A DNA stretch of 32,000 nt from Candidatus Saccharimonadota bacterium. Lineage in GTDB: Bacteria; Patescibacteriota; Saccharimonadia; Saccharimonadales; UBA4665. A program made the position numbers and the translations under genes. Location of the stretch: contig CP065016.1 of assembly GCA_016700375.1 (NCBI GenBank), positions 30,001 to 62,000 of the forward strand, in the 5' to 3' direction. Within the stretch, counting starts at the first letter, position 1. Every line of letters begins with the position of its first letter. The notes under the pieces are model-generated. The model saw nothing but the letters and a program-made list of their open reading frames with translations. It searched no databases and was not told the DNA's origin. This document shows positions 1-31,770 of this stretch, piece after piece.

Positions 1-428
1 ATGGTATCGAGTGGAACAAGTTTTTCTGTGCGGTGCACGGGCTTGTTATCGACCAGCCATAAAATGATGCCGCCGATAATGAGAGCAAATGCTATGACCA
101 CAGGTATGGATATAGCTGTCGAAATCTTGTCAAACGCCAAACCAATAACGCCAGCCGGTATGGTACCGAGGGCTAGAATCTTCCAGAAGTTGAGTGCTGC
201 ACTTTCACGTCGCAGTAGCCCTACTGACTTCTGCCATAAATCGCGCCGGTAGTACCACACCACCGCAGCAATGGCACCTAGCTGGATAACCACCGTGAAT
301 AGTTCGTGTGTATCTTTGAAGCCTATGAGCTCCTGAGTTAATATCAAATGTCCGGTGCTAGAAATAGGTAAGAATTCTGTTATGCCTTCGATAACGCCCA
401 GCAGTAACGCCTGTAAAAATTCAATCAT
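1..428 (-). CDS. uppP: undecaprenyl-diphosphate phosphatase (UppP/BacA), 5' part; gene continues past the left edge
   Basis: Reverse-strand translation from ATG (428-426) gives MIEFLQALLLGVIEGITEFLPISSTGHLILTQELIGF... This contains the EGxTEFLPISSTGH signature of UppP and stays open to position 1. It is not in the supplied track; the + ORF 1..252 is its antisense shadow. Confidence 0.85.
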   Translation of the reverse strand, partial: MIEFLQALLLGVIEGITEFLPISSTGHLILTQELIGFKDTHELFTVVIQLGAIAAVVWYYRRDLWQKSVGLLRRESAALNFWKILALGTIPAGVIGLAFDKISTAISIPVVIAFALIIGGIILWLVDNKPVHRTEKLVPLDT

Positions 429-742: not shown

Positions 743-1702
743 TGTTAGAAAACCTCGCGTTGTTTAACTTTTCCAGCTTCCTTCATAGGCCGCTCGTACT
801 GGTAAAAGTACCACATAGTCGCTCGAGCGGCGTCGCCTTGTCAATGCCTTTGTGTGGGCGTACACAGTTGTAGTAATTCACAAACCTGGTAAGGGCTTTG
901 GCTCGCTCCTCACGACTGTTAAATACCTCGGCGTTATGCCAGCTCTCCATTAGTGTTCGGATGGCTCGTTCGGCTTTGCCATTCGTCTGCGGACACTTCA
1001 CTTTGGTGAACTTCTGGGTGATGCCAGCCTCGCCACAGGCTTTCATGAAAGCATGTTCACCGTAACGGCCTTTGTACTCGGTGCCATTGTCGGTTAAGAT
1101 TCGTTCAATACCATAGGGGCATTGAGCCAGTACAGTACTGAGGAAATCCGCGCTACTGAACATGCTCTTGTCGGGGTAGATACCAACGTACAGCTCTCTT
1201 GAGTAGTCATCAATAGCCACAAACAGATATTCATGGCCGTCCAGCTTCGTTTCGCCCGTAAGTAGTGGTAGACGTTTAGTATCCATATGCAACATCTCGC
1301 CTGGATAGTCTTTCTCGTAACGTTTGGCAGTCCGGGCTAGTTTATCTTGGATTGATCGCTCAATTTTGCCCAGCCGCTTTAAGCCGTACTCCAGGCATTG
1401 GTAGCGTTTGTTAGTACTGACGTGCAGGCTGTAGTCATCCCGCCGAGCCCGAGTGAGGATCTTTTGTATAGTGGGGTAGGACACCCCATATTTGGCAATG
1501 AGATCTTTCTTACGTAAGTTGAGGACAAAATAATCCTCTGCCAATGCTTTACGTTGAAACGGCATGAGCCGTGTTCGTTTATGTACTACCATAGTGGTAG
1601 CCTCCTCTCGTTGGGTTAGTTAGTTGGTTGTACTCTAACTTTTACCATGGAGGAGGCTACTTTGGTTGTCTAGAAAGTTAAATAACGCTCGGGGATTTTA
1701 CA
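743..1702 (-). mobile_element. IS481-family insertion sequence, copy A (960 bp)
   Basis: Imperfect terminal inverted repeats begin with TGT: TGTTAGAAAACCTCGCGTTGTTTAAC at 743 and, inverted at 1702, TGTAAAATCCCCGAGCGTTATTTAAC. A 7-bp direct repeat GGTTATG flanks it (736-742 and 1703-1709). It is the reverse complement of copy B wherever compared (both ends, leader, and an identical 269-aa product). Confidence 0.9.
783..1592 (-). CDS. IS481-family DDE transposase (HTH + rve integrase core)
   Basis: 269 aa with the motifs HMDTKRL (D), TDNGTEY (D) and PQTNGKAERAIRTL (E), typical of IS481-type rve transposases. A GAGGAGG SD lies 7 nt upstream. Confidence 0.9.
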   Translation of the reverse strand: MVVHKRTRLMPFQRKALAEDYFVLNLRKKDLIAKYGVSYPTIQKILTRARRDDYSLHVSTNKRYQCLEYGLKRLGKIERSIQDKLARTAKRYEKDYPGEMLHMDTKRLPLLTGETKLDGHEYLFVAIDDYSRELYVGIYPDKSMFSSADFLSTVLAQCPYGIERILTDNGTEYKGRYGEHAFMKACGEAGITQKFTKVKCPQTNGKAERAIRTLMESWHNAEVFNSREERAKALTRFVNYYNCVRPHKGIDKATPLERLCGTFTSTSGL

Positions 1703-1788
1703 GGTTATGTATTGATTGTTAATAATGCTAATGCTAGGATAAGGCAAGGTTAATATTCCTTAATTTTAGATAGCATGGAGGACATGGA

Positions 1789-4722
1789 ATGAGTGATTTT
1801 TTTCAGCAGGCTAGAAATATGCAAGTGGGAGGGGGCGCGACAAGCAGCCACTCAAACGTTTTAGCGTCCACTCCCATGCCATCATCTCTAAAAGAGATAG
1901 TATCTGCTTGGGAGGCGATAAATAAAGAACTTTCAAGTAAAGGGTATACGTCTTTCAGCTTTGACTTGAGCGATACCGGGCTTGCTCGGGCTACGACCGG
2001 TATCCGGCACAACGCACCAGACCAAATTTCCACTCCCTTCGCGCAAAGCGTCATAGAATATCGTGTTGCCGCTCAACGTGCTGCAATCTTTAACGCTCCT
2101 TATCGAACACACACGTACAGCAACGATCCCACTTTCGGTCCAGACCTTGCCGGCAAGGAGGTTCGAAACTATGAAGGCGATATGATACACGAAGCCTTTG
2201 CCGAGAATTCCGACGGCTCCCCGATACTTGAGGATCCGAGCTATAAACTGGATCCCGAATTTCTCGCCAAAGGCATTAATAAACGTTTGACTACCTACGC
2301 GCAATCGCAAATCGACCCTGCTGGTTACCATATTGCCAATGGCCAAGAATTTTTTGAGGGTCAGTGGCAGAATATTACTGATGACGCAAGACGCGAGCAG
2401 TCCATAGCGGAGTTCAAGGCAACCCACGGCGAGTGGGATGAAATAAAGGGCAACTACACTAAATTTCTTGAGAATGGCGGTCGGGACATTTCCAGCGTCA
2501 GCGACACCAGCACAAATCCACTCACACTTGACCAATTTGCCTACGGCCCAGGAGAGAAGAATGTGGAGGCGGCCTTCAATACGACGTCGTATGATCCTAC
2601 GAAACGCCTTCAAGAGGCCGTCGGGGCAAAGGGTGAGGTAACGGATCCAACCAACCCAAACTATGATAGTGATCTCGTGCGCCGTTTCTTAATGGCTCGG
2701 ACACAATTAATCGCCGTGACGACACCAGAAGCAAATAGCATGCTCGCTGACAAAAACGGCACAGAGTCTGATGCGATTAAGAGATTGTTAAATGATGCAC
2801 GAGCCAGTACGTTAAACACGGCCTCAACCCTTGATGGCGGCGGGCATTTTTCTGAGCGAATTATTGCAAGTTTCAGGGATAAGCTAACGGCGTTTGCCGA
2901 TGGCAGCACTGAGTCAGCTAGTCGACAACAGCTTTATTCTAGTAGACGAGACGAGGTTTATGGCGGGTTTGCCACAGGTTCTGCTCAATCTTCCGCTCGA
3001 ATCAATGATTATCCACATGGTATATTCAGTAACCAGTCATTGCGACAAGAGGGGCGATGGTCGGGCCAGATGAGCCAACAGAGCCCTGCAGATGTAATCC
3101 GCGCCCAAGCCATTGCCTCCGGCGACGTAGATACGCTTAATGCTCTTCATAAGGCGTACATGGCAGGAGGTTCGATTGAAGTAGAACGCAATGGCTTTTA
3201 CAGCGGGAGTAGCATACCAACTATCTCAACAATTAAGAATGACTGGCTGGAGGTGAATGCTGAATTACGTCAGAAAGGGTTCACTTCATACACGCTTAAC
3301 CCTTCGAGTGAAGCGATTCAAGAAAAGCCGACTGTTGTTTCCACTCCCTTCGCGCAAAGCGTCATAGAATATCGTGTTGCCGCTCAACGTGCTGCAATCT
3401 TTAACGCTCCTTATCGAACACACACGTACAGCAACGATCCCACTTTCGGTCCAGACCTTGCCGGCAAGGAGGTTCGAAACTATGAAGGCGATATGATACA
3501 CGAAGCCTTTGCCGAGAATTCCGACGGCTCCCCGATACTTGAGGATCCGAGCTATAAACTGGATCCCGAATTTCTCGCCAAAGGCATTAATAAACGTTTG
3601 ACTACCTACGCGCAATCGCAAATCGACCCTGCTGGTTACCATATTGCCAATGGCCAAGAATTTTTTGAGGGTCAGTGGCAGAATATTACTGATGACGCAA
3701 GACGCGAGCAGTCCGTAGCGGAGTTCAAGGCAACCCACGGCGAGTGGGATGAAATAAAGGGCAACTACACTAAATTTCTTGAGAATGGCGGTCGGGACAT
3801 TTCCAGCGTCAGCGACACCAGCACAAATCCACTCACACTTGACCAATTTGCCTACGGCCCAGGAGAGAAGAATGTGGAGGCTCGGGCAGCGTTGGTTAAT
3901 CCAGATAAATTGTTTGTCGCAACGCTAGGCGAAAAAGGCGATATTACTGACTACAAAAACCCAAATATGGATGCCGATCTCCTAAAACGGTATCTGACCG
4001 CAAAAAGTGAAATGCAAGCTATCTATACCGGAGGGAAATTGCAGGGCGGACATTTTCAAACGGTAGATATGCTAGAACAGCAGCCTGAGATAATGCAACG
4101 GAACTATGTGGCAGATTCTCTCCGCAGGCAGTACAGTTTAGATTTGGCGAACCGAGGGGGGAGAATCGGTGAGTTTTCTCAAGAAATGCCGTCTGGAATG
4201 TACAATCGTCGACCTTATATGTTCGACGACAGATTTATGAATCCGTATAACACCGCAGGGAGCCAACCTGAAGGAGGGTCAAGGAGCTACGGCTATTCCC
4301 CGAATGAAGCCCGCGAAATTGAGGCATATCGATCAAGGTTGGCGAGTGAACGAATTACGGGAAGTTTTTATAGGCCATATGATGGGTTGGCAGGACAGTC
4401 TCAAGCAGATGAGTATGCTGCGAGAGCACTTCGGTCAAACGATGCCGGTGTTATAGCAAAACTTCATGAAGAATATATGGCGTCTTCAAACAGTGCCGTC
4501 GTAACTGATGCCACAAACCTCAGCAATAATATGCAATCAAATTCAGCCTTGGCCTACACGTATCCAGCTGCATCTGGCGGTTCAACAACACAAGAAAAAA
4601 TGAACACCCAGCCATCGATATCCGCGACTGGCGCGTCGATGGCATCTGCGTCCCCGGCTGGAACGTCAGAAAATGCGCAAGCAGCTAATCCGATTAGCAT
4701 GGTATCCTTTACCAAACAGTAA
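1789..4722 (+). CDS. 977-aa orphan protein of two tandem ~437-aa modules with an S/A/T-rich C-terminal tail; no signal peptide, TM segment or recognised domain
   Basis: Long uninterrupted ORF with a GGAGGA SD about 9 nt upstream. It shows an internal 1311-bp periodicity. I could not recognise any family motif. Confidence 0.8.
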   Translation: MSDFFQQARNMQVGGGATSSHSNVLASTPMPSSLKEIVSAWEAINKELSSKGYTSFSFDLSDTGLARATTGIRHNAPDQISTPFAQSVIEYRVAAQRAAIFNAPYRTHTYSNDPTFGPDLAGKEVRNYEGDMIHEAFAENSDGSPILEDPSYKLDPEFLAKGINKRLTTYAQSQIDPAGYHIANGQEFFEGQWQNITDDARREQSIAEFKATHGEWDEIKGNYTKFLENGGRDISSVSDTSTNPLTLDQFAYGPGEKNVEAAFNTTSYDPTKRLQEAVGAKGEVTDPTNPNYDSDLVRRFLMARTQLIAVTTPEANSMLADKNGTESDAIKRLLNDARASTLNTASTLDGGGHFSERIIASFRDKLTAFADGSTESASRQQLYSSRRDEVYGGFATGSAQSSARINDYPHGIFSNQSLRQEGRWSGQMSQQSPADVIRAQAIASGDVDTLNALHKAYMAGGSIEVERNGFYSGSSIPTISTIKNDWLEVNAELRQKGFTSYTLNPSSEAIQEKPTVVSTPFAQSVIEYRVAAQRAAIFNAPYRTHTYSNDPTFGPDLAGKEVRNYEGDMIHEAFAENSDGSPILEDPSYKLDPEFLAKGINKRLTTYAQSQIDPAGYHIANGQEFFEGQWQNITDDARREQSVAEFKATHGEWDEIKGNYTKFLENGGRDISSVSDTSTNPLTLDQFAYGPGEKNVEARAALVNPDKLFVATLGEKGDITDYKNPNMDADLLKRYLTAKSEMQAIYTGGKLQGGHFQTVDMLEQQPEIMQRNYVADSLRRQYSLDLANRGGRIGEFSQEMPSGMYNRRPYMFDDRFMNPYNTAGSQPEGGSRSYGYSPNEAREIEAYRSRLASERITGSFYRPYDGLAGQSQADEYAARALRSNDAGVIAKLHEEYMASSNSAVVTDATNLSNNMQSNSALAYTYPAASGGSTTQEKMNTQPSISATGASMASASPAGTSENAQAANPISMVSFTKQ
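2027..2570 (+). repeat. 544-bp intragenic direct repeat, copy 1
   Basis: Matches 3338-3881 at an offset of 1311 bp with a single difference (A2404 versus G3715, giving Ile/Val). Confidence 0.95.
3338..3881 (+). repeat. 544-bp intragenic direct repeat, copy 2
   Basis: See copy 1. Identity stops abruptly at both borders while the protein flanks remain only distantly similar. Confidence 0.95.
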
Positions 4723-4899
4723 ATGGATACTCTGGTCACATCGATACGTGAGCAATCGAGCAAGCTCAACGGTACTAGGTTAGCTTGTGACGGCTGCTTA
4801 TTTGCAACAGATTTTTGTATGGAGTGAGTTAGATTGTATTTCTGAAAAGGTTTTATAAGTACAAGCGCATTGAACCATGGTATGGCGCTTCTGAGTAGT

Positions 4900-6132
4900 T
4901 CAGCTTTGCTCTGTATAGCCAACAATACTGGTAGGCTCTGGCAGCGTATTGCCAGGTAATCCGTTAGCGCTTGCTCCTCCAAAGGCTAGCTTTTGGCCAG
5001 GGAGTATTAGATCTGGGTTAGCAAGGTTGTTCTCTTTTGCCAGAGACATGTAGTCTCCGCCGTACCCATGCTTCTCTGCAATGGCACTGAGTGTATCGCC
5101 TACGACAACAGTGTAGGTTCCGGCGCTTTCGTCCGTGCCCGTACCAACCGATCCTGCGGCTGCGCCGTCAGGGAGTTGTAGTACTTGACCCGGATGAATG
5201 AGGTTACGGTTTTCAACATTGTTTAGACGAACGAGCGTATCTACATCTGTGCCGTAGTACTGAGCAATGTCGCTTAGGGTGTCACCAGGCATAACAATAT
5301 GCATACCTGTACCAGCGGTTGGCTCGGCTCCTCCGGCGGCGTTACCCGCCACTGGGTCATCAGGCGTGGTGATGTCGTTTGGCATGGCAGGATGGTTGAG
5401 CTCGGCATCGGCCAATGCAGCATTTGCTTGGTCGCTTCGATGATCTTCACCGACACTGCTGCCTGGCAGGCCGTCATCAACTCCTTCAGCTCCACCGGCA
5501 TTATTTTCTTGGTCTTCATTACCACCATTGGCTAGCGCATCATTTGCTGCATCGTCCCGATTATCTTCGCCGGTTTGACTGCCGGGCGCAGCAGTGCCAG
5601 CACCTGGAGCTGTACCGGCGTCTGGGTCTTGGTCGGTATCAGTTTGACCCGTGCTGTTTGTGCTGTCCGTATTGGTTTCCACGCCAGCAGTATTTACTGG
5701 CGCTGCCCCGGTTGCGTCATCTGAGGATGCCACAGGGTCGTCGACTACAATTGGGTTTGTTCCTGCAGGGTCAGTTACAACCTGGGCGGGCACGGGAGCA
5801 GCGACGGCAGGCGTTTCGGCCGGTGTTGTTGAGCCGCCAGGCAGCTTAAGGGTTTTGCCGGCGTAAATTCTGTTTGGGTCTGTTATGCCATTTAAATCAG
5901 CCAGAACATCCACTGTGGTTCCATACCGCTTCGCAATAGCACTCAGCGTGTCTCCCGACTGAATGGTGTACGTACCACCAGAACCACCAGAACCACCAGA
6001 ACCACCAGAACCACCAGAACCACCAGTCGGTGTAGGTGCGCTTTGATACGTAGCCGTTGCAGCTGCACCGATCGCATCATGGGACGCTGTGGCCTCTGCT
6101 AACGACACCTGGTTAGATTGCATAGTTGTCAA
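4900..6132 (-). CDS. 3xLysM-domain protein, 5'-truncated by IS481 copy B (probable recent pseudogene)
   Basis: Three LysM repeats are present: [18 protein letters not shown]...[25 protein letters not shown]...GQVLQLP and [18 protein letters not shown]...GQKLAF. They are separated by acidic low-complexity linkers. The track start is a TTG with no SD. The frame stays open upstream to the IS boundary and continues on the far side of the IS (see 7187-7237). Confidence 0.8.
5974..6027 (-). repeat. 9-bp coding microsatellite (ACCACCAGA x5 plus one variant) encoding a (GGS)n linker
   Basis: Five perfect tandem 9-mers at 5974-6018 plus ACCACCAGT at 6019-6027. On the minus strand this translates to [17 protein letters not shown] ahead of LysM domain 1. 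Confidence 0.9.
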
Positions 6133-6226
6133 GTCATTAAGAGCGGTCTGATTGTATGCATTTTGCGTCTGATTCTGAGTAGAATATCCTGAACTGGCAA
6201 TAACTACATTCGGATTTAATATAATG

Positions 6227-7186
6227 TGTAAAATCCCCGAGCGTTATTTAACTTTCTAGACAACCAAAGTAGCCTCCTCCATGGTAAAAGTTAGAGTACA
6301 ACCAACTAACTAACCCAACGAGAGGAGGCTACCACTATGGTAGTACATAAACGAACACGGCTCATGCCGTTTCAACGTAAAGCATTGGCAGAGGATTATT
6401 TTGTCCTCAACTTACGTAAGAAAGATCTCATTGCCAAATATGGGGTGTCCTACCCCACTATACAAAAGATCCTCACTCGGGCTCGGCGGGATGACTACAG
6501 CCTGCACGTCAGTACTAACAAACGCTACCAATGCCTGGAGTACGGCTTAAAGCGGCTGGGCAAAATTGAGCGATCAATCCAAGATAAACTAGCCCGGACT
6601 GCCAAACGTTACGAGAAAGACTATCCAGGCGAGATGTTGCATATGGATACTAAACGTCTACCACTACTTACGGGCGAAACGAAGCTGGACGGCCATGAAT
6701 ATCTGTTTGTGGCTATTGATGACTACTCAAGAGAGCTGTACGTTGGTATCTACCCCGACAAGAGCATGTTCAGTAGCGCGGATTTCCTCAGTACTGTACT
6801 GGCTCAATGCCCCTATGGTATTGAACGAATCTTAACCGACAATGGCACCGAGTACAAAGGCCGTTACGGTGAACATGCTTTCATGAAAGCCTGTGGCGAG
6901 GCTGGCATCACCCAGAAGTTCACCAAAGTGAAGTGTCCGCAGACGAATGGCAAAGCCGAACGAGCCATCCGAACACTAATGGAGAGCTGGCATAACGCCG
7001 AGGTATTTAACAGTCGTGAGGAGCGAGCCAAAGCCCTTACCAGGTTTGTGAATTACTACAACTGTGTACGCCCACACAAAGGCATTGACAAGGCGACGCC
7101 GCTCGAGCGACTATGTGGTACTTTTACCAGTACGAGCGGCCTATGAAGGAAGCTGGAAAAGTTAAACAACGCGAGGTTTTCTAACA
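6227..7186 (+). mobile_element. IS481-family insertion sequence, copy B (960 bp)
   Basis: Same termini as copy A, in inverted orientation relative to it. A 7-bp direct repeat TATAATG flanks it (6220-6226 and 7187-7193). Confidence 0.9.
6337..7146 (+). CDS. IS481-family DDE transposase (identical to 783..1592)
   Basis: The 269-aa product is identical to copy A and has the same SD. Confidence 0.9.
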   Translation: MVVHKRTRLMPFQRKALAEDYFVLNLRKKDLIAKYGVSYPTIQKILTRARRDDYSLHVSTNKRYQCLEYGLKRLGKIERSIQDKLARTAKRYEKDYPGEMLHMDTKRLPLLTGETKLDGHEYLFVAIDDYSRELYVGIYPDKSMFSSADFLSTVLAQCPYGIERILTDNGTEYKGRYGEHAFMKACGEAGITQKFTKVKCPQTNGKAERAIRTLMESWHNAEVFNSREERAKALTRFVNYYNCVRPHKGIDKATPLERLCGTFTSTSGL

Positions 7187-7237
7187 TATAATGCTTCCTG
7201 TTCCTCCACCACCCTGTGTGTCATCTACATCAGCCAT
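7187..7237 (-). pseudogene. orphaned 5' end (first 17 codons) of the LysM protein gene
   Basis: On the minus strand AAAGGAGG-ctctg-ATG (ATG at 7237-7235) encodes MADVDDTQGGGGTGSII and ends exactly at the IS boundary. Removing the IS and one TSD copy joins it in frame to 6219..4900 with no stop codon. In the present state the IS end TGT TAG supplies a stop. Confidence 0.8.
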
Positions 7238-7351
7238 CAGAGCCTCCTTTACTGTTTTTCTGCCCTCAACGAGCCTTTTTCAATTGTTATATATCGAACA
7301 AATGTAAGCATATACGAAATTTTAATATGTTGTCAATTAACGCTCAAAATA

Positions 7352-8761
7352 TTATTTTGCTCGAGCAGCTTTGTCCTGAAGTAAGTCCAGCACCAACGCG
7401 GCGGTCCACGAAAAGTTGTGGGCTCCGAGCGGCTCGCCAGTTACCGGGTCGAAATACTCAGCAAAGCCGCTGCGGCGGACCATTTCAAGCATTGTTTCGG
7501 TGAGCGCATCAGCGTGGTCTTTGTAGCCTGCGCGTCTCAGGCCATCAACGATAAGCCAGTTAGTATTAATCCACGTCGGTCCCTGCCAGTAGAGGTCTGG
7601 GTTAAACTGCGGGCTATCAAGTGGTACAGAGGGCACTGGGAACCCTGGGCCGAAAACATGCTCGTTTTCAAGCTGTTTTACCATGTGTTCCGCCTGCTCT
7701 TTTGTAAGTACGCCGGCGTACAGCGGCATGAGCGCTGCGATGCTCGGTTGTTTTAGTAGGCGGTGGGTAATGAAGTCGCGCGACCAATACATTTTACTGT
7801 AAGGGTCGTAGAGCTCGTGAAGCGCCCGTTCGCTTTTTTCCATACGCTGCTGGAGTTCATCGGGCAATTCATGGTGAAGAGTGCGGGCAATGTCACGAAG
7901 CCGCTCATTTGCGCGTATGAATATGCAGTTGAAGGTAAGGTCTTCTATACTGAACAGCCCGTGGTCGAGAATTTTGAGGCTGTCGTAGGCTTTCCGGCGC
8001 AGACGACGCTGTGCATCGAAGTAGCTGAGTGTTTCAAGAGTGCTTAGCCGCTGTCCGGGAGGTATGTAATGTCGGTCGCGTCTGAAAAAGCCGATGATGC
8101 CTTCCAGCCGTGCCCAGCGAATAAACCGAATCCAAGCTGGCATGAGGTGGTCACGGAGCTCGGTAGTCCACGGTGGCGTGTTATCCAGCCCGCATTCCCA
8201 TGGGTGGAGGAGTAAAGCCAATCCCTCGCCGTGGGGGTCACGCTCGCGGTATAGCCATTCGTGGTAGGAAACAATGTGCGGTAGCATCAGACGGTACCAC
8301 CTGCGCCGCTCTGCCAGTGTCAGCTTTTGACCGACTTGCCAGACAGCTTCTGCGAGCATGGGTGGCTGGGTGATGCCGCTGGTGGCGATACCGTCAGGTG
8401 AATAGGGGCTTATCCAGCTTCGCCAAAACTCTCTATCACGACGATACTCTGGCTCATTACTAAAAATCATGTTTGGCAACATACCGTTGCTCCACTGGCC
8501 TTTTACAAGATTGAGTAGTTCGGTTTGGGCGCGGTCAACATCTATGTGCCTGAGGCCAATTGCTACGAAACAACTATCCCATAGCCACTGGTGCGGGTAG
8601 AGGTTTTCGGCTGGGATGGTGTAATTACCTCTGTCGTTTGCACCCAGGATTTGTTTTGCCTGTTCGTCGAGTGGCAGCGCCGCTCGCTCCTCAACATCAG
8701 CAATTTCCGTTTCACTCAGAACATCTTCAGCACGCATGGTATCCTGCTCGTTTTCGCTCAT
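7352..8761 (-). CDS. GH63 / MGH1-like (alpha/alpha)6-barrel glycoside hydrolase (glucosylglycerate or mannosylglycerate hydrolase-like, or debranching-like)
   Basis: 469 aa with YPHQWLWDSCF, HPWECGLDNTPPW and GPTWINTNWL, motifs I associate with GH63/GH37-type barrels. The substrate is not inferable. Confidence 0.65.
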   Translation of the reverse strand: MSENEQDTMRAEDVLSETEIADVEERAALPLDEQAKQILGANDRGNYTIPAENLYPHQWLWDSCFVAIGLRHIDVDRAQTELLNLVKGQWSNGMLPNMIFSNEPEYRRDREFWRSWISPYSPDGIATSGITQPPMLAEAVWQVGQKLTLAERRRWYRLMLPHIVSYHEWLYRERDPHGEGLALLLHPWECGLDNTPPWTTELRDHLMPAWIRFIRWARLEGIIGFFRRDRHYIPPGQRLSTLETLSYFDAQRRLRRKAYDSLKILDHGLFSIEDLTFNCIFIRANERLRDIARTLHHELPDELQQRMEKSERALHELYDPYSKMYWSRDFITHRLLKQPSIAALMPLYAGVLTKEQAEHMVKQLENEHVFGPGFPVPSVPLDSPQFNPDLYWQGPTWINTNWLIVDGLRRAGYKDHADALTETMLEMVRRSGFAEYFDPVTGEPLGAHNFSWTAALVLDLLQDKAARAK

Positions 8762-9286: not shown

Positions 9287-9293
9287 GAATCGT

Positions 9294-9322
9294 ATTATAC
9301 TTCTTTAAGAGTTAAGAGTTAA
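9294..9322 (-). promoter_or_regulatory. predicted yajQ promoter: TTAACT-N17-TATAAT, with the -10 box 7 nt from the ATG
   Basis: The minus strand reads TTAACT (9322-9317), a 17-nt spacer, TATAAT (9299-9294), acgattc, then ATG (9286). No SD is present. Confidence 0.5.
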
Positions 9323-9408
9323 GAGTTAAGAGTTAAGAGTTAAGAGTTAAGAGTTAAGAGTTAAGAGTTAAGAGTTAAGAGTTAAGAGTTAAGAGTTAAG
9401 TGTTAAGA
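9304..9408. repeat. heptanucleotide tandem array (GTTAAGA)n, about 14-15 units
   Basis: Twelve perfect GTTAAGA units at 9311-9394, then GTTAAGT and GTTAAGA, with a degenerate TTTAAGA unit at 9304. The last unit runs into the hpt SD (AAGAGGAGG). Confidence 0.95.
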
Positions 9409-9417
9409 GGAGGCGGT

Positions 9418-10014
9418 ATGAGCGGATTTGATGATGGCGTAATGGTGGGAGAAACCAAAATGCAGGCGAACGTGTTGTTCAAAGAGGCGCAAATTACCGA
9501 GCGGGTTGCGTCACTGGCTCAGGAAATCGCGGCAGATTACGCTTCGCGCGGTGGACTGCACACGGTGACAGTGCTGAATGGTGCGTTGCACTTTGCTTCG
9601 CAACTGCGATTTGCGATTTCTAAGGCAAACCCAGAACTTGGCTTTGAAATGACCTCAGACACCATCCACCTTGCAAGTTACCATGGCACTGGCTCTAGCG
9701 GCGAAGTGAAGAAAATTAGCGATTTGACTCATCCGGTCACGGGCAAACACGTGCTCATTGTAGAAGACATCGTCGACACCGGGAAAACACTCAGCGTCCT
9801 TGTGGCCGAATTATTGGCGCAAAAGCCCGCCTCGCTTGCGGTGGTGGTGTTGCTGCGAAAGCCATCAAAACTGGCCGTTCCAGAGTCTGACCTGGGCGAA
9901 AAGATGTACGTAGGCTTCGATATTGGCCCAGAGTTTGTGGTGGGCCACTGTTTTGACTACGATGGTCGCTTCCGCGATGTGCCAGACATATACGCTCTTA
10001 GTCCCGCAACATAA
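9418..10014 (+). CDS. hpt: hypoxanthine(-guanine) phosphoribosyltransferase
   Basis: It has the PRPP-binding motif VLIVEDIVDTGKTL and an HPRT-like N-terminus. Start chosen at ATG 9418, just after the GGAGG SD; ATG 9460 is an alternative. Confidence 0.85.
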   Translation: MSGFDDGVMVGETKMQANVLFKEAQITERVASLAQEIAADYASRGGLHTVTVLNGALHFASQLRFAISKANPELGFEMTSDTIHLASYHGTGSSGEVKKISDLTHPVTGKHVLIVEDIVDTGKTLSVLVAELLAQKPASLAVVVLLRKPSKLAVPESDLGEKMYVGFDIGPEFVVGHCFDYDGRFRDVPDIYALSPAT

Positions 10015-10019
10015 ACTAT

Positions 10020-10191
10020 CTGACCCGCGCGCACTTTTGGGGTGTCATCTTGAGCATTGAAATGAATTCAGTGTAAACTCCGTCGAAAGATCTCATCGTA
10101 TTTGCATCTAACGAGATCTCTCCACGGAGTTTACCCCGTACTTGATACGGGGGTCGGGATGACAATGGAATAAAAAGTGCGCGTGGGTCAG
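10020..10191. mobile_element. 172-bp MITE, second member of the family, inverted relative to the one at 534-682
   Basis: Ends are CTGACCCGCGCGCACTTTT (10020-) and AAAAAGTGCGCGTGGGTCAG (-10191). The internal segment CTCCACGGAGTTTACCCCGTACTTGATACGGGGGTCGGGATGAC is the reverse complement of MITE-1 positions 563-606. The flanking 9-mers ATAAACTAT and GTAAACTAT (10011-10019 and 10192-10200) match at 8 of 9 positions. Confidence 0.75.
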
Positions 10192-10261
10192 GTAAACTAT
10201 TGCAAGCACAAGCTTTTTGCTATACTACAAATTACCTAACTAAATATAACTTAGGGGAATA

Positions 10262-11017
10262 ATGAATATGCAAAAAACAACAATATTAATGAAGCGGTTT
10301 TCGTTTGCACTTGCCGCGTTTGGCTTTATGGGTGTATTTGCCCTCGCGGCCACACAGCCAGCTAGTGCTCGTCAGGGTGAGGACGATACAACCGTTGCAC
10401 AAGAGAGTACCGAACAAGAAGATACTGCTGGGCCAGAGGCACAGTCAGGTTTGGCCGATGATAGCAATCGGCGTGAAGAAGTTAAGCTCAGGGTGAATCA
10501 GCTTCGTGAAGATGCAAAAAAAGATTTAGAAAAAAAGCGTGATGGCCGCAAAGAAATGGCAGACGAAAAGCGAAAGCTTGTGTGCAAAAACAAGCAGAAG
10601 GCCATAGAAAACAAGCTCGCCGCCTTCAATCAAGCTGCAGATAAGCATCTTGCCAAACTAGACGATGTATATAAACGCATTCAGGCATATAAAGCCGCCG
10701 AGAATCTTCAACCTGCTAATTACGACGATCTTGTAGCCGCCGCAACCGCAAAGCAAGAAGCAGCAACCGCTGCCGTGGCTGCGCTGAAAGAGCTAGCCGT
10801 AGGGGTGGATTGTAGCGACCCAGAGACGGTTGTCAAACTAAGTGAGGTTAGAGAGGCGGCAAAAGCAACACGCACCGCACTCCATGACTATAGAAAAGCC
10901 CTCAAGGACATAGTCGTCGCGCTAGCCCAGTCAAAGGACGATGCTGAAAATGGTGATGAAACTACCAGCGACTCTGGCATCGATTCTACTTCAGACACAA
11001 CGGAGGGTACAAACTAA
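10262..11017 (+). CDS. secreted alpha-helical/coiled-coil orphan protein (signal peptide, acidic ends, two Cys)
   Basis: The N-terminus MKRFSFALAAFGFMGVFALAATQPASA is signal-peptide-like. The rest is K/E/A-rich with a heptad-like pattern. No family was recognised. Confidence 0.7.
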   Translation: MNMQKTTILMKRFSFALAAFGFMGVFALAATQPASARQGEDDTTVAQESTEQEDTAGPEAQSGLADDSNRREEVKLRVNQLREDAKKDLEKKRDGRKEMADEKRKLVCKNKQKAIENKLAAFNQAADKHLAKLDDVYKRIQAYKAAENLQPANYDDLVAAATAKQEAATAAVAALKELAVGVDCSDPETVVKLSEVREAAKATRTALHDYRKALKDIVVALAQSKDDAENGDETTSDSGIDSTSDTTEGTN

Positions 11018-11329: not shown

Positions 11330-11342
11330 TTAACTCTAAGCC

Positions 11343-11371
11343 TTAACTCTTAAGTCCGAACTCTGTATACT
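11343..11371 (+). promoter_or_regulatory. predicted pheST promoter: TTAACT-N17-TATACT, with the -10 box 8 nt from the ATG
   Basis: TTAACT (11343-11348), a 17-nt spacer, TATACT (11366-11371), acatacca, then ATG 11380. No SD is present. Confidence 0.5.
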
Positions 11372-11379
11372 ACATACCA

Positions 11380-15147: not shown

Positions 15148-15663
15148 ATGGATAAACAACGTATCAAAGCGCTCGCCGCCACTGGTGTTGTCGCGGTGCT
15201 TGGCATATGGGGGCTTACTTCCTTAGGCGGAAGTGATACAAATACAAAAATGACCGACTCAGCCTCAACGACCAATAAAAAAACAGCAGACCCGGCTACT
15301 GACCGCGAAAAGCAGCTCGCACAAAAAACTCAAGACGCTCAAGCTAAGGTAGCCAAGGGAGAAAACGTAACAACGAGCTTGGACGAAACGACCGCTGCGT
15401 ACGAATACGTTGCCGGAACTGGTGAGTCGTATACCGCACTTGCGCGCCAGGCGGTAGCGAAGCTAGACGCCAAATTGACTCCTGTAGAACGCGTTGCGGC
15501 AGAAACCAAACTGAGTGAAGAAGCAGGTATGCCATACCTAGAAATCGGACAGCGTGTTTCAATGAAAAAAGAGGCTGTAGGCGCGGCTGTCAAGTGGGCA
15601 AAGAGCCTTACGACCCAAGAAAAGGCTTCATGGCAATACTACGCCGACCTGGTTAGCTGGTAG
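15148..15663 (+). CDS. N-terminally membrane-anchored orphan protein
   Basis: 171 aa with a GGGAGA-type SD and a TM-like segment ALAATGVVAVLGIWGLTSL. No family was recognised. Confidence 0.65.
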   Translation: MDKQRIKALAATGVVAVLGIWGLTSLGGSDTNTKMTDSASTTNKKTADPATDREKQLAQKTQDAQAKVAKGENVTTSLDETTAAYEYVAGTGESYTALARQAVAKLDAKLTPVERVAAETKLSEEAGMPYLEIGQRVSMKKEAVGAAVKWAKSLTTQEKASWQYYADLVSW

Positions 15664-17566: not shown

Positions 17567-18091
17567 ATGTCGACAACGCGACTGCGTGATAGGATTTTTG
17601 CAGGGCTTGGTGCGCTATTATTTTTGGTAACTGCTTCAGCATTTACCATAGGGGTAGTTATCGATATGATGAAAAAAAAGCCTGTAGTATGTGACATACA
17701 GACACCAGAAAAAAGTTCCATACAAGCCGCTCCAGAGGTCTATAAGCCTCAGGGTGTTGTCAAAGATCTTGAGAAGACTGATCTCGTAGAAGGCAAAGGG
17801 GCCATGGCAAAGAAAGGCGACTGCTTGGTTATGAAGTATCAGGGCAACCTTGCATCAGACGGCACAGTGTTTGATGGCAACTACAATAAAGCACAGGCAC
17901 TACAGTTCAGTCTTGGCCAGGGCCAGGTAATAAAAGGTTGGGATGAAGGTTTAGAGGGGATGAAAGTAGGCGGGACTCGCCGACTTGCTATTCCTGCGGC
18001 TATGGGCTATGGGGAAGGTGGACAGGGAGCAATTCCCGCTAATGCTGATTTGGTATTTATTGTAAAGCTTGAACGTATAAAGACAAACTAG
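17567..18091 (+). CDS. FKBP-type peptidyl-prolyl cis-trans isomerase, N-terminally membrane-anchored
   Basis: It contains FDGNY...FSLGQGQVIKGWDEGLEGMKVGGTRRLAIP...ANADLVFIVKL. A GGAGGG SD and an N-terminal hydrophobic helix are present. Confidence 0.9.
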   Translation: MSTTRLRDRIFAGLGALLFLVTASAFTIGVVIDMMKKKPVVCDIQTPEKSSIQAAPEVYKPQGVVKDLEKTDLVEGKGAMAKKGDCLVMKYQGNLASDGTVFDGNYNKAQALQFSLGQGQVIKGWDEGLEGMKVGGTRRLAIPAAMGYGEGGQGAIPANADLVFIVKLERIKTN

Positions 18092-18105
18092 GCTTTGGAG
18101 TGAAA

Positions 18106-18465
18106 ATGCTAGATGATTTTACACCTCAGGGAAACGTAGCAGAGCTTCAAAGTATAGATCGAGTACTCGGTACCGGAGACACTGTGCAGCCCGGTGCAAC
18201 CGTAACGTGCCATTACACTGGTGCAATCGCAAAAAGTGGTGAAGTATTTCAGAGCTCGCACGACTTTGGCCGCGCTATCAGCTTCCCGCTCAGCGGCGTC
18301 ATTGCCGGCTGGACTCAGGGCGTTCCTGGTATGAAAGTAGGTGGCACGCGCCGTTTGCTTATTCCGGCCGCCATGGCCTACGGTAGTAACCCTCCCTATG
18401 GCTCTGGCATACCGGCAAATGCTGACCTTGTGTTTGATATTGAGCTGGTGTCTATAGAAGGGTAA
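18106..18465 (+). CDS. FKBP-type peptidyl-prolyl cis-trans isomerase (cytoplasmic paralogue)
   Basis: It contains VIAGWTQGVPGMKVGGTRRLLIP...ANADLVFDIELV. ATG 18106 follows a GGAG SD; the track begins at GTG 18100. Confidence 0.9.
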   Translation: MLDDFTPQGNVAELQSIDRVLGTGDTVQPGATVTCHYTGAIAKSGEVFQSSHDFGRAISFPLSGVIAGWTQGVPGMKVGGTRRLLIPAAMAYGSNPPYGSGIPANADLVFDIELVSIEG

Positions 18466-25978: not shown

Positions 25979-27139
25979 CCCACACTCACTTTTTTCCTCC
26001 TCCCCGTACATGAGCCACCGGTATCGGTGGTAGCAGCGGCGTACGTAGTAGCCGTTGCATATACTCCCAGGCTTGCTTGAACCAGCTCAGTCGTTTCTTG
26101 GGATGAATCTTCTGCTGTTGTTTTGGTAGTACTTTGACCGCATAGCGCCACAGTAACCACCAACCGAGGAAGACAAACAGCAGCAAGTTACGGATGACTT
26201 GTGGTTTTCTGACTCGTTGCCACTCCAATCGTTGCAACCACTTCACATCCTTGAAGGCTTCTTCAATTTCGAACCTTTCTGCGTAACGGTTCAGGACTTG
26301 TCTTCTGGTGAGGGCCTCTGTTCCCTCGCTCGGTAGGTTGGTCAACAAAAACCAGGGCTCCGGATCCTTCATGTTCGGATTGTAATCCGAACGAATAAGT
26401 CGGAGCTTATGTGTATGGTACGTGATGGGTAATTCCTCATGACTAATGTCATGGATGGGTTCCTTCCACCAGCTGGGATCCCAGGGAAGCTGAACGAGCT
26501 TGTCGCTCTTGGTACGAGCGATGAAGTGCACATCGTACAGGGCAAACAAAGTGAACAGTTTGTCACTAGCAAACCAGCGATCCATGACAAGTACCAGTTG
26601 CAGATCTGGTGCATTAACTTGAAGGAAATGGAACAGTCCCTCCAGCGCCACTAGAAGTGGCGCAATGAGAGCTGCTTCGCTGAGGTTCACCTGACACCAA
26701 ATGGGTATAGCTCGACCCTTGCGATGCGACACCGCCAAGATGGCGATACAAAACGGGCCGAATTGAGAGTGGTCCAGAGAGCAGTACCACCGACCAGTAT
26801 GCGAAGCTAACGCTTCGCTAACCAACAATCGCTGCAAGCGCACTGGCAGTTCCTCGTCAGTAACTAACCGACGAATGCGGTTTTCTCCAGTCCAGCGATT
26901 CAGCCCAAGCTTTCGACCAGCAGCGTTGAGCGAACAGAACTCCTGAAGGGAAAACTGTTCAACTCCGAGGAAGAAGCGACGAGCCTTAGCTTTTGGGATG
27001 TATGTCGCACGCAGCCGCTTTACAGCAGTTGCCATCTTTTGTAGTGTAGTCATTAGAAAACGACCTTTCTGTTTTAGCTTTTGTAACCAAAACTGTAGGG
27101 TCGTTTTTGTTATGTGTCAAAAAAGTGAGTGTGGGTCAG
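25975..27139 (-). mobile_element. IS4-family insertion sequence (1165 bp)
   Basis: Perfect 21-bp terminal inverted repeats CTGACCCACACTCACTTTTTT. A 9-bp direct repeat GGCCGCCAT flanks it (25966-25974 and 27140-27148). Confidence 0.9.
25986..27053 (-). CDS. IS4-family DDE transposase
   Basis: 355 aa with candidate catalytic residues in SLDHS and VMDRWF, plus YAERFEIEEAFKDVK, which fits the Y-2-R-3-E-6-K signature of IS4-family transposases. Confidence 0.85.
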   Translation of the reverse strand: MTTLQKMATAVKRLRATYIPKAKARRFFLGVEQFSLQEFCSLNAAGRKLGLNRWTGENRIRRLVTDEELPVRLQRLLVSEALASHTGRWYCSLDHSQFGPFCIAILAVSHRKGRAIPIWCQVNLSEAALIAPLLVALEGLFHFLQVNAPDLQLVLVMDRWFASDKLFTLFALYDVHFIARTKSDKLVQLPWDPSWWKEPIHDISHEELPITYHTHKLRLIRSDYNPNMKDPEPWFLLTNLPSEGTEALTRRQVLNRYAERFEIEEAFKDVKWLQRLEWQRVRKPQVIRNLLLFVFLGWWLLWRYAVKVLPKQQQKIHPKKRLSWFKQAWEYMQRLLRTPLLPPIPVAHVRGGGKK

Positions 27140-27323: not shown

Positions 27324-27773
27324 ATGAAAATATTCGTTGGCGCAGACCACAACGGGTTTGACCTAAAAGTAACACTGCTAGACTACCTAAAAAGGGGTGG
27401 TTATGAGGTTGTCGATGCTGGCGACACCGAGAAGCACCCCGATGACGATTTCCCCCAGTTTGCAGCTGCCGCCGTCAACGCCATGGCCGCTGACCCGTCC
27501 AGTGATGTTCGAGGGGTTCTTATTACCAGCGGTGGTCAAGGTATGGCTATAGCCGCAAACCGTTTTAAGGGTATTCGTGCATGCGTGGGATGGAACCAAG
27601 ACACCGTGCGTGACGCGCGTAACGACAATGACTGCAACGTGCTATGCCTTCCTGCGCATAGTCTGGACTTTGAACAGGTAGTGGGGATTGTGCAAACCTG
27701 GCTTATTACGCCTTTCTCTGGTGCACCACGCTACAAACGTCGTATAGAAATGCTGGACGAACTGGGTAATTAA
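27324..27773 (+). CDS. RpiB/LacA/LacB-family sugar-phosphate isomerase paralogue lacking the known catalytic residues
   Basis: It has GADHNG and an RpiB-like fold signature AIAANRFKGIRA. However, TSGGQGM replaces CGTGVG (E. coli) and GGSGNGE (M. tuberculosis), and RNDND replaces RQHND. Confidence 0.75.
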   Translation: MKIFVGADHNGFDLKVTLLDYLKRGGYEVVDAGDTEKHPDDDFPQFAAAAVNAMAADPSSDVRGVLITSGGQGMAIAANRFKGIRACVGWNQDTVRDARNDNDCNVLCLPAHSLDFEQVVGIVQTWLITPFSGAPRYKRRIEMLDELGN

Positions 27774-27794
27774 CAGGGTGGAGAAAGATAGAAC

Positions 27795-28286
27795 ATGAAA
27801 ATAGCAATTACCACCGACCATGCAGGGTTTGAAGCACTAAAGGAACTAAAAACATATCTTGAAAGTCTCGGCCACGAATGTATAGATTATGGCCCAACAG
27901 TCTTTGATGCCGAGGACGACTATCCGGAGTTTATGTTCCCAGCCGCCCGCGCCGTGGCTGCTGGTGAGTGCGAACGAGGTGTCATTATGGGTGGCAGTGG
28001 GCAAGGCGAGGCAATGGCAGCAAACCGTATAGCGGGCATCCGGGCGGCACTATTTTACGGCCCGGTTACGGCGAAGGTGGCAGTGGACGCTGGTGGCACC
28101 CTAAGTGACGACCCCTACGAAATAGTAAAACTCTCTCGCCAGCACAACGATGCAAATGTACTGAGTCTATCTGGGCGCTTTCTTACACTTGACGAAATGA
28201 AAACCGCGCTCAAACTATGGCTGGAAACACCATTCAGCGGTGCCCAACGCCACGCTCGCCGTATACGAAAATTAGACGAGGTATAA
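27795..28286 (+). CDS. rpiB: ribose-5-phosphate isomerase B (actinobacterial/Glu-type)
   Basis: It has TTDHAG, GGSGQGEAMAANR (Glu at the M. tuberculosis Glu75 position), SRQHNDANVL and PFSGAQRHARRI. Confidence 0.85.
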   Translation: MKIAITTDHAGFEALKELKTYLESLGHECIDYGPTVFDAEDDYPEFMFPAARAVAAGECERGVIMGGSGQGEAMAANRIAGIRAALFYGPVTAKVAVDAGGTLSDDPYEIVKLSRQHNDANVLSLSGRFLTLDEMKTALKLWLETPFSGAQRHARRIRKLDEV

Positions 28287-28346: not shown

Positions 28347-28985
28347 ATGAGTGTCAGCATATGTCCGACCGTAACTACCGACGACCCAGATGTGTACCGT
28401 GCGCACATGGAAGAAATTGCCACCTACGCAACCCGTGTGCATATTGACCTCGGGGACGGTATATTTACGCGGAAGCTTACTGACGTTGAAGATGTCTGGT
28501 GGCCAGGCGGCATGCGAGCGGACTTGCATGTGATGTTCCAGCAGCCGTTTTTACATGTGGCTTCCCTAAAAGCACTAGGGCCGCAGCTGGTGATTGTGCA
28601 TGCCGAGGCCGACGGTGACTTTATGGCATTTGCTCGGGAGATGCATCGGCACGGGATAGAGGCGGGTGTATCATTGCTACGAGAAACACCGGTTCAGGCT
28701 ATTGTTCCAGCACTGGAGCTTATAGACCATGTGCTCATATTTGCCGGAACGCTTGGGCAAAACACTGGCCCGGGGGGAGTCAATCTTGACGTTCTTGCCA
28801 AAGCAGCTCAACTTCGTGCGCTCAAGCCAAGTCTAGAGATTGGCTGGGACGGCGGCGCAAACGACACGAATGCGCGCCAGCTTATGGAAGGCGGGGTCGA
28901 TGTTATAAACTGTGGTGGATACTTACACGGCGAAAATCCACTTGCAGCCTGGCACCGCATACAGCAGATTGTTGGCAACGAATAA
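28347..28985 (+). CDS. ribulose-phosphate 3-epimerase-like TIM-barrel protein (divergent)
   Basis: VHIDLGDGIF (compare HxDxMDGxF), DLHVM, IVHAEA and GWDGG align with Rpe landmarks, but it is divergent overall. Confidence 0.6.
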   Translation: MSVSICPTVTTDDPDVYRAHMEEIATYATRVHIDLGDGIFTRKLTDVEDVWWPGGMRADLHVMFQQPFLHVASLKALGPQLVIVHAEADGDFMAFAREMHRHGIEAGVSLLRETPVQAIVPALELIDHVLIFAGTLGQNTGPGGVNLDVLAKAAQLRALKPSLEIGWDGGANDTNARQLMEGGVDVINCGGYLHGENPLAAWHRIQQIVGNE

Positions 28986-29059
28986 TTACCCCATAAGGTA
29001 AACCACTAGTTCTACTAGTGTGACTCGCAAAGGTTTGACCTTCCCAGTAGTAACCCAGA

Positions 29060-29650
29060 AAATAAGAGCACCCGGAACCGTTTAGGTTTCGGGTGCTCTT
29101 CTTGCGATTGGTTGCCCCGCTGAAAGGAAACCATCTATGTCTACATCGTTAGACTACCATAGCTTATCTCATTCAAAATGGGATTTGAAGTACCATATTG
29201 TCTTCATCCCGAAAGGGAGAAGGAAAGCTCTCTACGGTGAGATACGCCCACGGTTGGGTAGAATATTTCACGAGCTGGCTAACCAAAAAGAATGCAAGAT
29301 TCTGGAAGGCCATCTCATGTCCGATCATGTTCACATGCTCATGGAGATACCACCAAAGTACAAAATCTCTGAAGTGATTGGCTTCATGAAGGGCAAAAGC
29401 GCTATTGCCATTGCCAGAGAGTTCGGCGGTAAGACCAGAAATTTCACGGGTGAACATTTCTGGGCCCGGGGCTATGCTGTTTCAAGCGTTGGATTTGAAG
29501 AGCAGGCCATCAGAAAGTACATCAGAGAGCAGGAGATCGATGACACAGCATCATCGGCTCAAGGAGCCTTCTAACTAATCAAACTAATACTGCGGGGCAA
29601 CGATCGCCTTTTAGGCGACCCCACTCAGCAAGCCACCGGCATGCCGGTGG
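29060..29650 (+). mobile_element. IS200-type element (tnpA only); boundaries approximate
   Basis: A strong 16-bp hairpin (29064-29100) lies upstream of tnpA, as in IS200 left ends. The inverted 10-mers GTTGCCCCGC (29111-29120) and GCGGGGCAAC (29592-29601) bracket the ORF. An 18-bp perfect palindrome CCACCGGCATGCCGGTGG (29632-29649) lies downstream. No TSD is expected for this family. Confidence 0.6.
29137..29574 (+). CDS. tnpA: IS200/IS605-family Y1 (HUH) transposase TnpA
   Basis: 145 aa with the HUH motif SDHVHMLMEIPPKY and a C-terminal catalytic Tyr region IRKYIREQE. The size is typical. Confidence 0.9.
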   Translation: MSTSLDYHSLSHSKWDLKYHIVFIPKGRRKALYGEIRPRLGRIFHELANQKECKILEGHLMSDHVHMLMEIPPKYKISEVIGFMKGKSAIAIAREFGGKTRNFTGEHFWARGYAVSSVGFEEQAIRKYIREQEIDDTASSAQGAF

Positions 29651-29681
29651 TGTCTGACTAACTATCATTCCTGCCCCTCAC

Positions 29682-30748: not shown

Positions 30749-30783
30749 GCTGCATATTATCTCATATTCTTATCTCATAACTC

Positions 30784-30812
30784 TTAACTCTTATCTCTAA
30801 CCAATGTATAAT
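30784..30812 (+). promoter_or_regulatory. predicted tkt promoter: TTAACT-N17-TATAAT, with the -10 box 10 nt from the ATG
   Basis: TTAACT (30784-30789), a 17-nt spacer, TATAAT (30807-30812), cataaccagc, then ATG 30823. No SD is present. The -35 box sits in AACTCTTAACTCTTA. Confidence 0.5.
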
Positions 30813-31677: not shown

Positions 31678-31680
31678 AAG

Positions 31681-31747
31681 TATTTGGTATTTGGTATTTG
31701 GTATTTGGCAAATCGCAGCTGGGCTAGATACTAGATACCAAATACCA
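31681..31747. repeat. heptamer array (TATTTGG x4) plus a complementary distal arm, between the two transketolase genes
   Basis: TATTTGG x4 occupies 31681-31708. CTAGATA x2 occupies 31724-31737. TACCAAATACCA (31736-31747) is complementary to TGGTATTTGGTA, which occurs in three registers of the array. Confidence 0.8.
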
Positions 31748-31770
31748 TATACCCAGAATGGGGTGAAATA

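Follow-up and report, generated by a model that had tools for sequence, protein, structure and literature searches.

Two independent insertions of an IS481-like element at a strain-variable chromosomal locus of Candidatus Saccharimonadales

In a 32,000-nt stretch of contig CP065016.1 (positions 30,001 to 62,000 of the forward strand; Candidatus Saccharimonadota bacterium, assembly GCA_016700375.1), hereafter called the window, two insertion sequences (ISs) resembling the IS481 family face each other across a 977-aa gene, here called the orphan, and most of a gene encoding a protein with LysM domains. The orphan (1789-4722, plus strand) is preceded by a GGAGGA ribosome-binding site and is convergent with the LysM gene on the minus strand, while the ISs lie at 743-1702 (copy 1, minus strand) and 6227-7186 (copy 2, plus strand). 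In a first-pass annotation, this arrangement had been put forward as a candidate for an undescribed two-gene surface system bracketed by ISs, with a plausible role in attachment to a host. We followed up this proposal with contigs or loci of relatives and metagenomes (L001-L014) and two protein clusters related to the orphan (P0001 and P0002). With a probability that we put at roughly 0.8, the locus is an unremarkable part of the chromosome of a wastewater Candidatus Saccharimonadales, variable between strains and recently struck twice and independently by one active 960-bp IS481-family element. The ancestral gene order would have been bacA (minus), orphan (plus), LysM (minus) and a gene for a hydrolase resembling glycoside hydrolase (GH) family 63 (minus).

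Both 960-bp IS copies contain one uninterrupted 810-nt transposase open reading frame (ORF) of 269 aa (783-1592 in copy 1 and 6337-7146 in copy 2), with the Pfam domains rve and rve_3. Reading of the ends and pairwise comparison showed that the copies are exact reverse complements with 100% identity, and a repeat search of the window recovered them as one perfect inverted pair (738-1708 and 6221-7191). Their terminal inverted repeats are imperfect and begin with TGT (TGTAAAATCC... and TGTTAGAAAACC...), the inverted-repeat pair being TGTAAAATCCCCGAGCGTTATTTAACTTT and TGTTAGAAAACCTCGCGTTGTTTAACTTT. Each copy abuts a 7-bp target-site duplication, which is GGTTATG for copy 1 (736-742 and 1703-1709) and TATAATG for copy 2 (6220-6226, inside the LysM coding sequence, and 7187-7193); the chance of a 7-bp match at a fixed position is ~6e-5. 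Since each IS has its own matching duplication, the two copies represent independent insertions, and no net inversion has occurred between them since. The first-pass annotation was accurate on the two copies, their duplications and this reading of them.

Eight metagenome contigs, including one from a record named activated-sludge metagenome, contain the same 960 bp with 100% identity and add further target sites (GGTTAGG and GGTTAG.). Identical copies at extra target sites indicate that the element has been active recently or is so currently, as had been proposed. No match was found in a search of the IS against plasmids. Target duplications of 7 bases are seen at three IS sites (GGTTATG, TATAATG and GGTTAGG). 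The targets in the window and in L009, L010 and L013 (GGTTATG, GGTTAGG, GGTTAG. and TATAATG) are alike and partly resemble the element's own TGTTAG end, and a target preference of the element is suggested by this likeness. Against NCBIfam, the transposase matched the IS481 model best (NF033577; E 7.3e-58; 196.3 bits, below the curated cut-off of 224), followed by IS3 with 70 bits. With an anatomy that fits and a profile score under the cut-off, the 960-bp IS probably belongs to the IS481 family as a new member or lies just outside it.

Copy 2 is inserted in the LysM gene. When positions 6227-7193 (the IS and one duplication) are removed, 7237-7194 is joined to 6226-4900, resulting in an uninterrupted 456-aa ORF, the product of which starts MADVDDTQGGGGTGSIILNPNV..., with an ATG at 7237 that stands 5 nt downstream of an AAGGAGG ribosome-binding site (7243-7249). 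The gene is now divided, on the minus strand, into a 5' fragment (7187-7237) of 17 codons (MADVDDTQGGGGTGSII) starting at this ATG and including the TATAATG at 7187-7193, and a 3' remnant (4900-6226) with codons 15/16-456 of the reconstructed protein. The remnant encodes long, acidic, G/A/T/D-rich linkers and three LysM domains, LysM1 (5839-5970), LysM2 (5170-5301) and LysM3 (4981-5115), which had been recognised in the first reading and match Pfam PF01476 in three stretches (E 1.9e-45; 152.9 bits against a cut-off of 20.9). A promoter-like site, TTGACA-18-TATGCT, was found by consensus match at 7336-7307 on the LysM strand, outside the IS bracket. The 5' fragment runs one codon further into the IS and then meets a stop (18 codons), and the 410-aa ORF at 4900-6132 is the first TTG-to-stop frame of the remnant (TTG 6132), without a Shine-Dalgarno sequence. 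This reconstruction shows that copy 2 lies in codons 15-17 and parts the putative promoter, the ribosome-binding site and the first 17 codons from the remainder of the gene. We infer that the LysM gene is now a knock-out, which would give at best an N-terminally truncated and poorly translated product. Of the earlier description that the ISs enclose two convergent genes, the convergence of orphan and LysM remnant was confirmed; simple enclosure was not, the ribosome-binding site, ATG and 17 codons of LysM being outside (7187-7237).

The strain comparison proposed in the first-pass annotation revealed empty IS sites as well as intact LysM genes. The resident genes of L001, L002, L003 and L006 are without IS copies, and in L002 and L003 window position 742 is joined directly to 1703, which is the empty site of copy 1. 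LysM is intact in L001 (463 aa) and L006 (475 aa), both without the IS, and also in L008, where it has the same N-terminus as the reconstructed window protein. The copy 1 insertion recurs in L011, L012 and L014. These loci show that the orphan and LysM genes are residents and older than both IS insertions. The closest genome match is L006, a Candidatus Saccharimonadales metagenome-assembled genome (MAG) with ~95-96% nucleotide identity, in agreement with the reduced-genome, host-dependent lineage that had been suspected, and base composition is flat across the locus. Thus, the locus is chromosomal and resident, and the bracketed two-gene system is an insertion accident and no unit.

Two alleles, unrelated to each other, exist for the N-terminal residues 1-95 of the LysM protein. 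Type A (MADVDD..., N/Q/T-rich) is found in the window (7237-7187 and 6226-5980) and in L008, which has ~90% identity, and type B (MASLISD..., S/T/P/G-rich) in the closer relatives L001 (3730-4014) and L006 (2700-2985). Since the alleles do not track overall identity, the 5' end of the gene has probably recombined. Matches of the LysM protein to NCBIfam models, including the SafA and Kbp/YgaU families, were all far under their cut-offs and due to the LysM domain alone. With its three LysM domains and acidic disordered linkers, the intact protein would be a non-catalytic binder of peptidoglycan or other glycans.

The proposal that the orphan and LysM genes form a surface, attachment or host-cell-wall module, which is being remodelled by the flanking ISs, draws on several observations. 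The genes converge side by side both in the window and in relatives at least 95% identical (L001, L004 and L006), LysM would bind peptidoglycan according to the function of its Pfam family, low-complexity tracts occur in both proteins, which also lack Cys, and LysM proteins of TM7 have been proposed as host-attachment factors (bioRxiv 10.1101/2020.04.29.069278). However, LysM is broken by an IS in the same genome, neither a catalytic nor an adhesin domain was detected, and the convergent orientation means that the two genes are not co-transcribed. Moreover, each gene is found without the other. In L008, ~90% identical in housekeeping genes, the order PheS-...-YajQ-GH-LysM is kept, and a convergent ATP-binding cassette (ABC) transporter gene follows 114 bp after LysM, with no orphan. 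In L007, P0002 is convergent with an orthologue (61% identity) of the L008 ABC gene, and no LysM gene is present on this 2-kb contig. The ABC gene in the window shares 42% identity with that of L008 and 41% with that of L007 over the aligned segments. The pairing of orphan and LysM therefore appears to be confined to relatives at least 95% identical, and the linkage, whose absence from other genomes the first-pass annotation had named as refuting its proposal, was not found beyond the immediate species.

The export of the two proteins was judged from Kyte-Doolittle mean hydropathy over 19 residues. The orphan peaked at 0.65 and the reconstructed LysM protein at 0.73, with no hydrophobic segment in either, whereas the window proteins encoded at 10262-11017, 15148-15663 and 17567-18091 scored 1.85-2.36, with classic N-terminal signals or anchors. 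As already stated in the first reading, neither protein shows a detectable Sec signal or transmembrane anchor, and the label of a surface system appears unsupported. Nor does a LysM domain prove an extracellular location, since SafA and Kbp/YgaU, a BON-LysM protein, function with no Sec export. We found no evidence that the orphan and LysM proteins would work together, and we consider a surface module built from them improbable.

The orphan is composed of N1 (1789-2026), core 1 (2027-2570), C1 and N2 (2571-3337), core 2 (3338-3881), and C2 with an S/T/A-rich tail (3882-4722). The cores are direct repeats of 544 nt on the plus strand with one difference, at 2404. Their flanks are far less alike, with protein identities of 26% between N1 and N2 (z 6.8) and 28% between C1 and C2 (z 14), and neither pair has detectable DNA similarity. 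Divergent flanks around a near-identical core point to a duplication that is old but was made uniform at its centre in more recent times. The orphan would thus consist of two anciently duplicated modules of ~437 aa, and gene conversion is the most likely cause of the uniformity of their central 544 nt. The two modules of the first-pass annotation were recovered in this analysis and are not uniformly similar.

P0001 (541 aa) is exactly N1-core-C2, a single-module allele with an uninterrupted core, and is carried by five contigs (L001-L005) from three assembly sources (NCBI, ENA and Logan). Deletion between the direct 544-bp core repeats would give this allele. The reverse change, from one module to two, would need the import of the divergent C1-N2 segment, which is unmatched elsewhere in databases, making deletion the simplest history.

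Upstream of the orphan, the locus differs from sample to sample. The intergenic region between the orphan and the divergent bacA/uppP gene holds copy 1, which ends 86 bp before the orphan ATG and whose transposase points away from the orphan. The same region contains an element of ~148 bp (534-681, no strand assigned) resembling a miniature inverted-repeat transposable element (MITE), with 17-bp terminal inverted repeats CTGACCCACACTCACTT and AAGTGAGTGTGTGTCAG. This MITE-like element is missing from the otherwise near-identical L002, L003 and L012; copy 1 is present alone in L012, and both elements are present in L011. A partial inverted MITE copy was also observed at 10084-10192 of the window and a further copy at 3230-3384 of L008, the latter with a central hairpin in which both arms have changed together, hinting at a structured DNA or RNA element. 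An IS200-like element with a 145-aa Y1 transposase (Y1_Tnp; Pfam E 5e-38) is located at 28978-29659 of the window, and in L001 (117-797) a copy 99.4% identical to it ends 24 nt before the orphan ATG. A genome rearrangement, considered for the junction of window 29659 to 1766 in L001, was rejected, the joined piece being this mobile IS200 copy. In the Logan contigs L004 and L005, positions 1-27 (AGAGGAGACTCTTATGTGAAGCTGGGG) are joined to window 1760 and replace the upstream region 29 nt before the orphan ATG; this junction sequence has no match in the window.

Copy 1 also separates the orphan from a promoter-like site at 689-718. A further such site (1697-1726; consensus match) is formed by the TTTACA terminus of copy 1 and the flanking AATAAT, and the terminus may supply a new -35 box for the orphan. 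Promoter-like matches numbered 9, against 8.9 expected from shuffles.

These variations raise the question of a contingency locus, in which IS insertion and excision and recombination between the 544-bp cores are selected as phase or antigenic variation of two host-interaction genes. At least four different junctions are found across samples within ~250 bp upstream of the orphan (IS481-like, MITE, IS200 at -24 and the junction at -29), one- and two-module alleles both occur, the two unrelated LysM N-terminal alleles are discordant with relatedness, and the TTTACA end of the IS could serve as an outward -35 box. However, the same pattern is to be expected from neutral decay and IS build-up where an intergenic region of an IS-rich genome tolerates insertions, and the promoter matches do not rise above the shuffle expectation. 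We regard selected variation of this kind as no more probable than the surface module. Slightly less probable again is a variant in which the orphan and LysM proteins, both signal-less and strain-variable, serve contact between episymbiont and host as substrates of a non-Sec export route, for example the type IV secretion system of Patescibacteria. Such a locus would act as a genuine contingency locus, in which module number is toggled via the 544-bp cores, LysM N-termini are exchanged, and expression is rewired or silenced by the IS481-like element, IS200 and MITE. What speaks for this variant is the hypervariability of the locus.

To find relatives of the orphan, 1.84 billion representatives were searched exhaustively with HMMER, which yielded P0001 and P0002 only; a word-indexed search of 5.8 billion proteins with the protein and profile A1 yielded P0001 only. 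P0002 (442 aa) is a distant relative (E 7e-8; 41% identity over the core), and the motifs LDPExLAKGINKR and FxATxGxWDxIxGxYxKF are common to it and the orphan. Scans of the 977-aa protein, its first module, P0001 and P0002 against Pfam, PHROGs, NCBIfam and PADLOC gave nothing significant; a partial match to TIGR04364 (0.00098) was dismissed, reaching 18 bits against a cut-off of 320. Searches of PDB by sequence and by profile A1 gave no match at E up to 10, scans of JGI metagenomes and IMG/VR with profile-derived patterns gave no orphan relatives, and tblastn of the orphan against phage genomes gave no match. The AlphaFold2 predicted local distance difference test (pLDDT) score was 34.5 for P0001 (4-row alignment) and 43.5 for the window's 193-aa core (3 rows), and Foldseek against PDB returned noise only (E at least 3.8), to which we give no evidential weight. 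In the literature nothing was found on this orphan, only the TM7 LysM attachment proposal and VirB1-like hydrolases that carry LysM and are encoded near Patescibacteria type IV secretion system genes (PMC12102498). The initial statement that the protein has no recognisable family is upheld by these profile, sequence and structure searches, with no confident family match in Pfam, PHROGs, NCBIfam, PADLOC, PDB or Foldseek; the orphan appears to fall outside the recognisable families, and no biochemical function could be assigned to it.

We also considered that the 977-aa ORF might not be protein-coding. It has no homologue of known function, its pLDDT values are very low, and IS elements are tolerated directly upstream. 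Nevertheless, a 2.9-kb open frame is very improbable by chance at ~49% GC, a GGAGGA ribosome-binding site is present, the module flanks are kept at the protein and not the DNA level, and P0002 has invariant motifs in common with the orphan. Between the orphan and the metagenome allele, the ratio of nonsynonymous to synonymous substitution rates (dN/dS) is 0.21, a value based on only 19 differences. Judged by these features of its sequence, the orphan is a real, lineage-restricted protein-coding gene with a predicted soluble product, and a non-coding ORF is highly unlikely. Finally, a composite transposon that delivered both genes, to which the identical inverted IS copies around 4.5 kb bear a resemblance as in Tn5 and Tn10, is refuted as the origin, because the outer flanks differ (GGTTATG and TATAATG) with each IS having its own pair, the LysM gene extends beyond the block, IS-free relatives hold both genes in place at the same locus, and copy 1 is alone at the site in other samples; later mobilisation of the IS-orphan-LysM-IS block may occur.

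Several points weigh against our reading of an ordinary, strain-variable patch struck twice by one element. Linkage was judged on few loci, namely a single relative of ~90% identity and, for the distant homologue, a single contig of 2 kb, and the missing detectable export signal is compatible with non-classical export. The direction of module change, in which two to one is favoured over one to two, is a matter of parsimony only, and the single-module contigs are short-read assemblies, in which repeat-related assembly effects are possible. The L006 contig starts 8 nt into the core repeat (window 2035/3346), and with this break within the core the Saccharimonadales MAG may also carry the two-module form. 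Furthermore, transcripts of the LysM remnant may start from the IS end or from a weak promoter-like site within it (6200-6172), and translation may begin at TTG 6132 or ATG 6123.

On its left, the locus is bordered by the 5' part of bacA/uppP (1-428, minus strand), which encodes an undecaprenyl-diphosphate phosphatase (identified from its translation; Pfam BacA, E 3.8e-39) and is divergent from the orphan. On its right, an MGH1-like (GH63-type) glucosyl-/mannosylglycerate hydrolase is encoded at 7352-8761 on the same strand as LysM (minus; Pfam PF22422, E 1e-92, and an NCBIfam match). This GH gene is a conserved neighbour of LysM, adjoining it in L006 and with synteny kept in L006 and L008. 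The remaining window genes are housekeeping genes, encoding PheS/T, GAPDH, RpiB, Rpe, PPase and a thioredoxin-reductase-like protein, and Rfam and tRNA scans of the window gave no match. A gene for an IS4-family-like transposase (355 aa; 25986-27053, minus strand) brings the mobile-element types within this 32-kb window of a reduced genome to four. Elsewhere in the window, a perfect array of ~15 units of the heptamer TTAAGAG was observed at 9291-9423, between yajQ/DUF520 and a phosphoribosyltransferase gene, with degenerate inverted echoes at 30768-30812 and 11337-11373, and a second heptamer, GTATTTG, with an adjacent inverted arm at 31680-31752. Two tandem paralogue pairs were also noted, comprising FKBP-type peptidyl-prolyl isomerases (174 aa with an N-terminal anchor, and 121 aa; 17567-18465) and two RpiB/LacAB-type isomerases (27324-28286).

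Together, these results remove a false lead, in that the inverted IS pair is no system boundary and one of the supposed system genes has probably been inactivated by an IS. The presumed natural multi-LysM knock-out argues that this LysM protein is dispensable in at least one strain, which bears on the TM7 LysM attachment proposal. The orphan is a genuine ORFan, matched by only two clusters out of 1.84 billion representatives, and its internal repeat yields one- and two-module alleles. The active IS481-like element, together with the MITE and IS200, provides evidence of ongoing IS dynamics in the reduced genome of a wastewater Saccharimonadales.

Compared with known systems, the locus is like composite transposons of the Tn5/Tn10 type in geometry only, with two identical inverted ISs around a few kb; different from these, the window ISs have separate duplications, one of them splits a gene, and the inner genes are IS-free in relatives. 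The LysM protein resembles non-catalytic multi-LysM proteins (SafA/ExsA-type, aggregation-promoting-factor-type and TM7 COG1388) in having three PF01476 domains, low-complexity linkers and no enzymatic domain, but it is without a signal peptide or membrane anchor, its gene has two unrelated N-terminal alleles of ~95 aa, and in the window that gene is disrupted. The orphan is similar to systems of repeat-mediated module-number variation, with a 544-bp near-identical direct repeat in one ORF and one- and two-module alleles in the population. In contrast to such systems, only two modules are present here, which are otherwise 26-28% identical, and surface exposure or adaptive value is without supporting evidence.

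The closest parallel for the mobile element is the IS481 family, for example IS481 of Bordetella pertussis. The window element shares with this family a single-ORF DDE/rve transposase with no frameshift (unlike IS3), a length of ~1 kb, imperfect terminal inverted repeats starting with TGT, short target duplications, several identical copies that indicate current activity, and an end sequence that may be able to serve as an outward -35 box. The IS481 target is the 6-bp NCTAGN, whereas the duplication here is 7 bp, at targets such as GGTTA(T/G)G or TATAATG. The element also differs in scoring under the NCBIfam cut-off, with a short 269-aa transposase that aligns to profile positions 78-284, and in its host, which is a Saccharimonadales bacterium.

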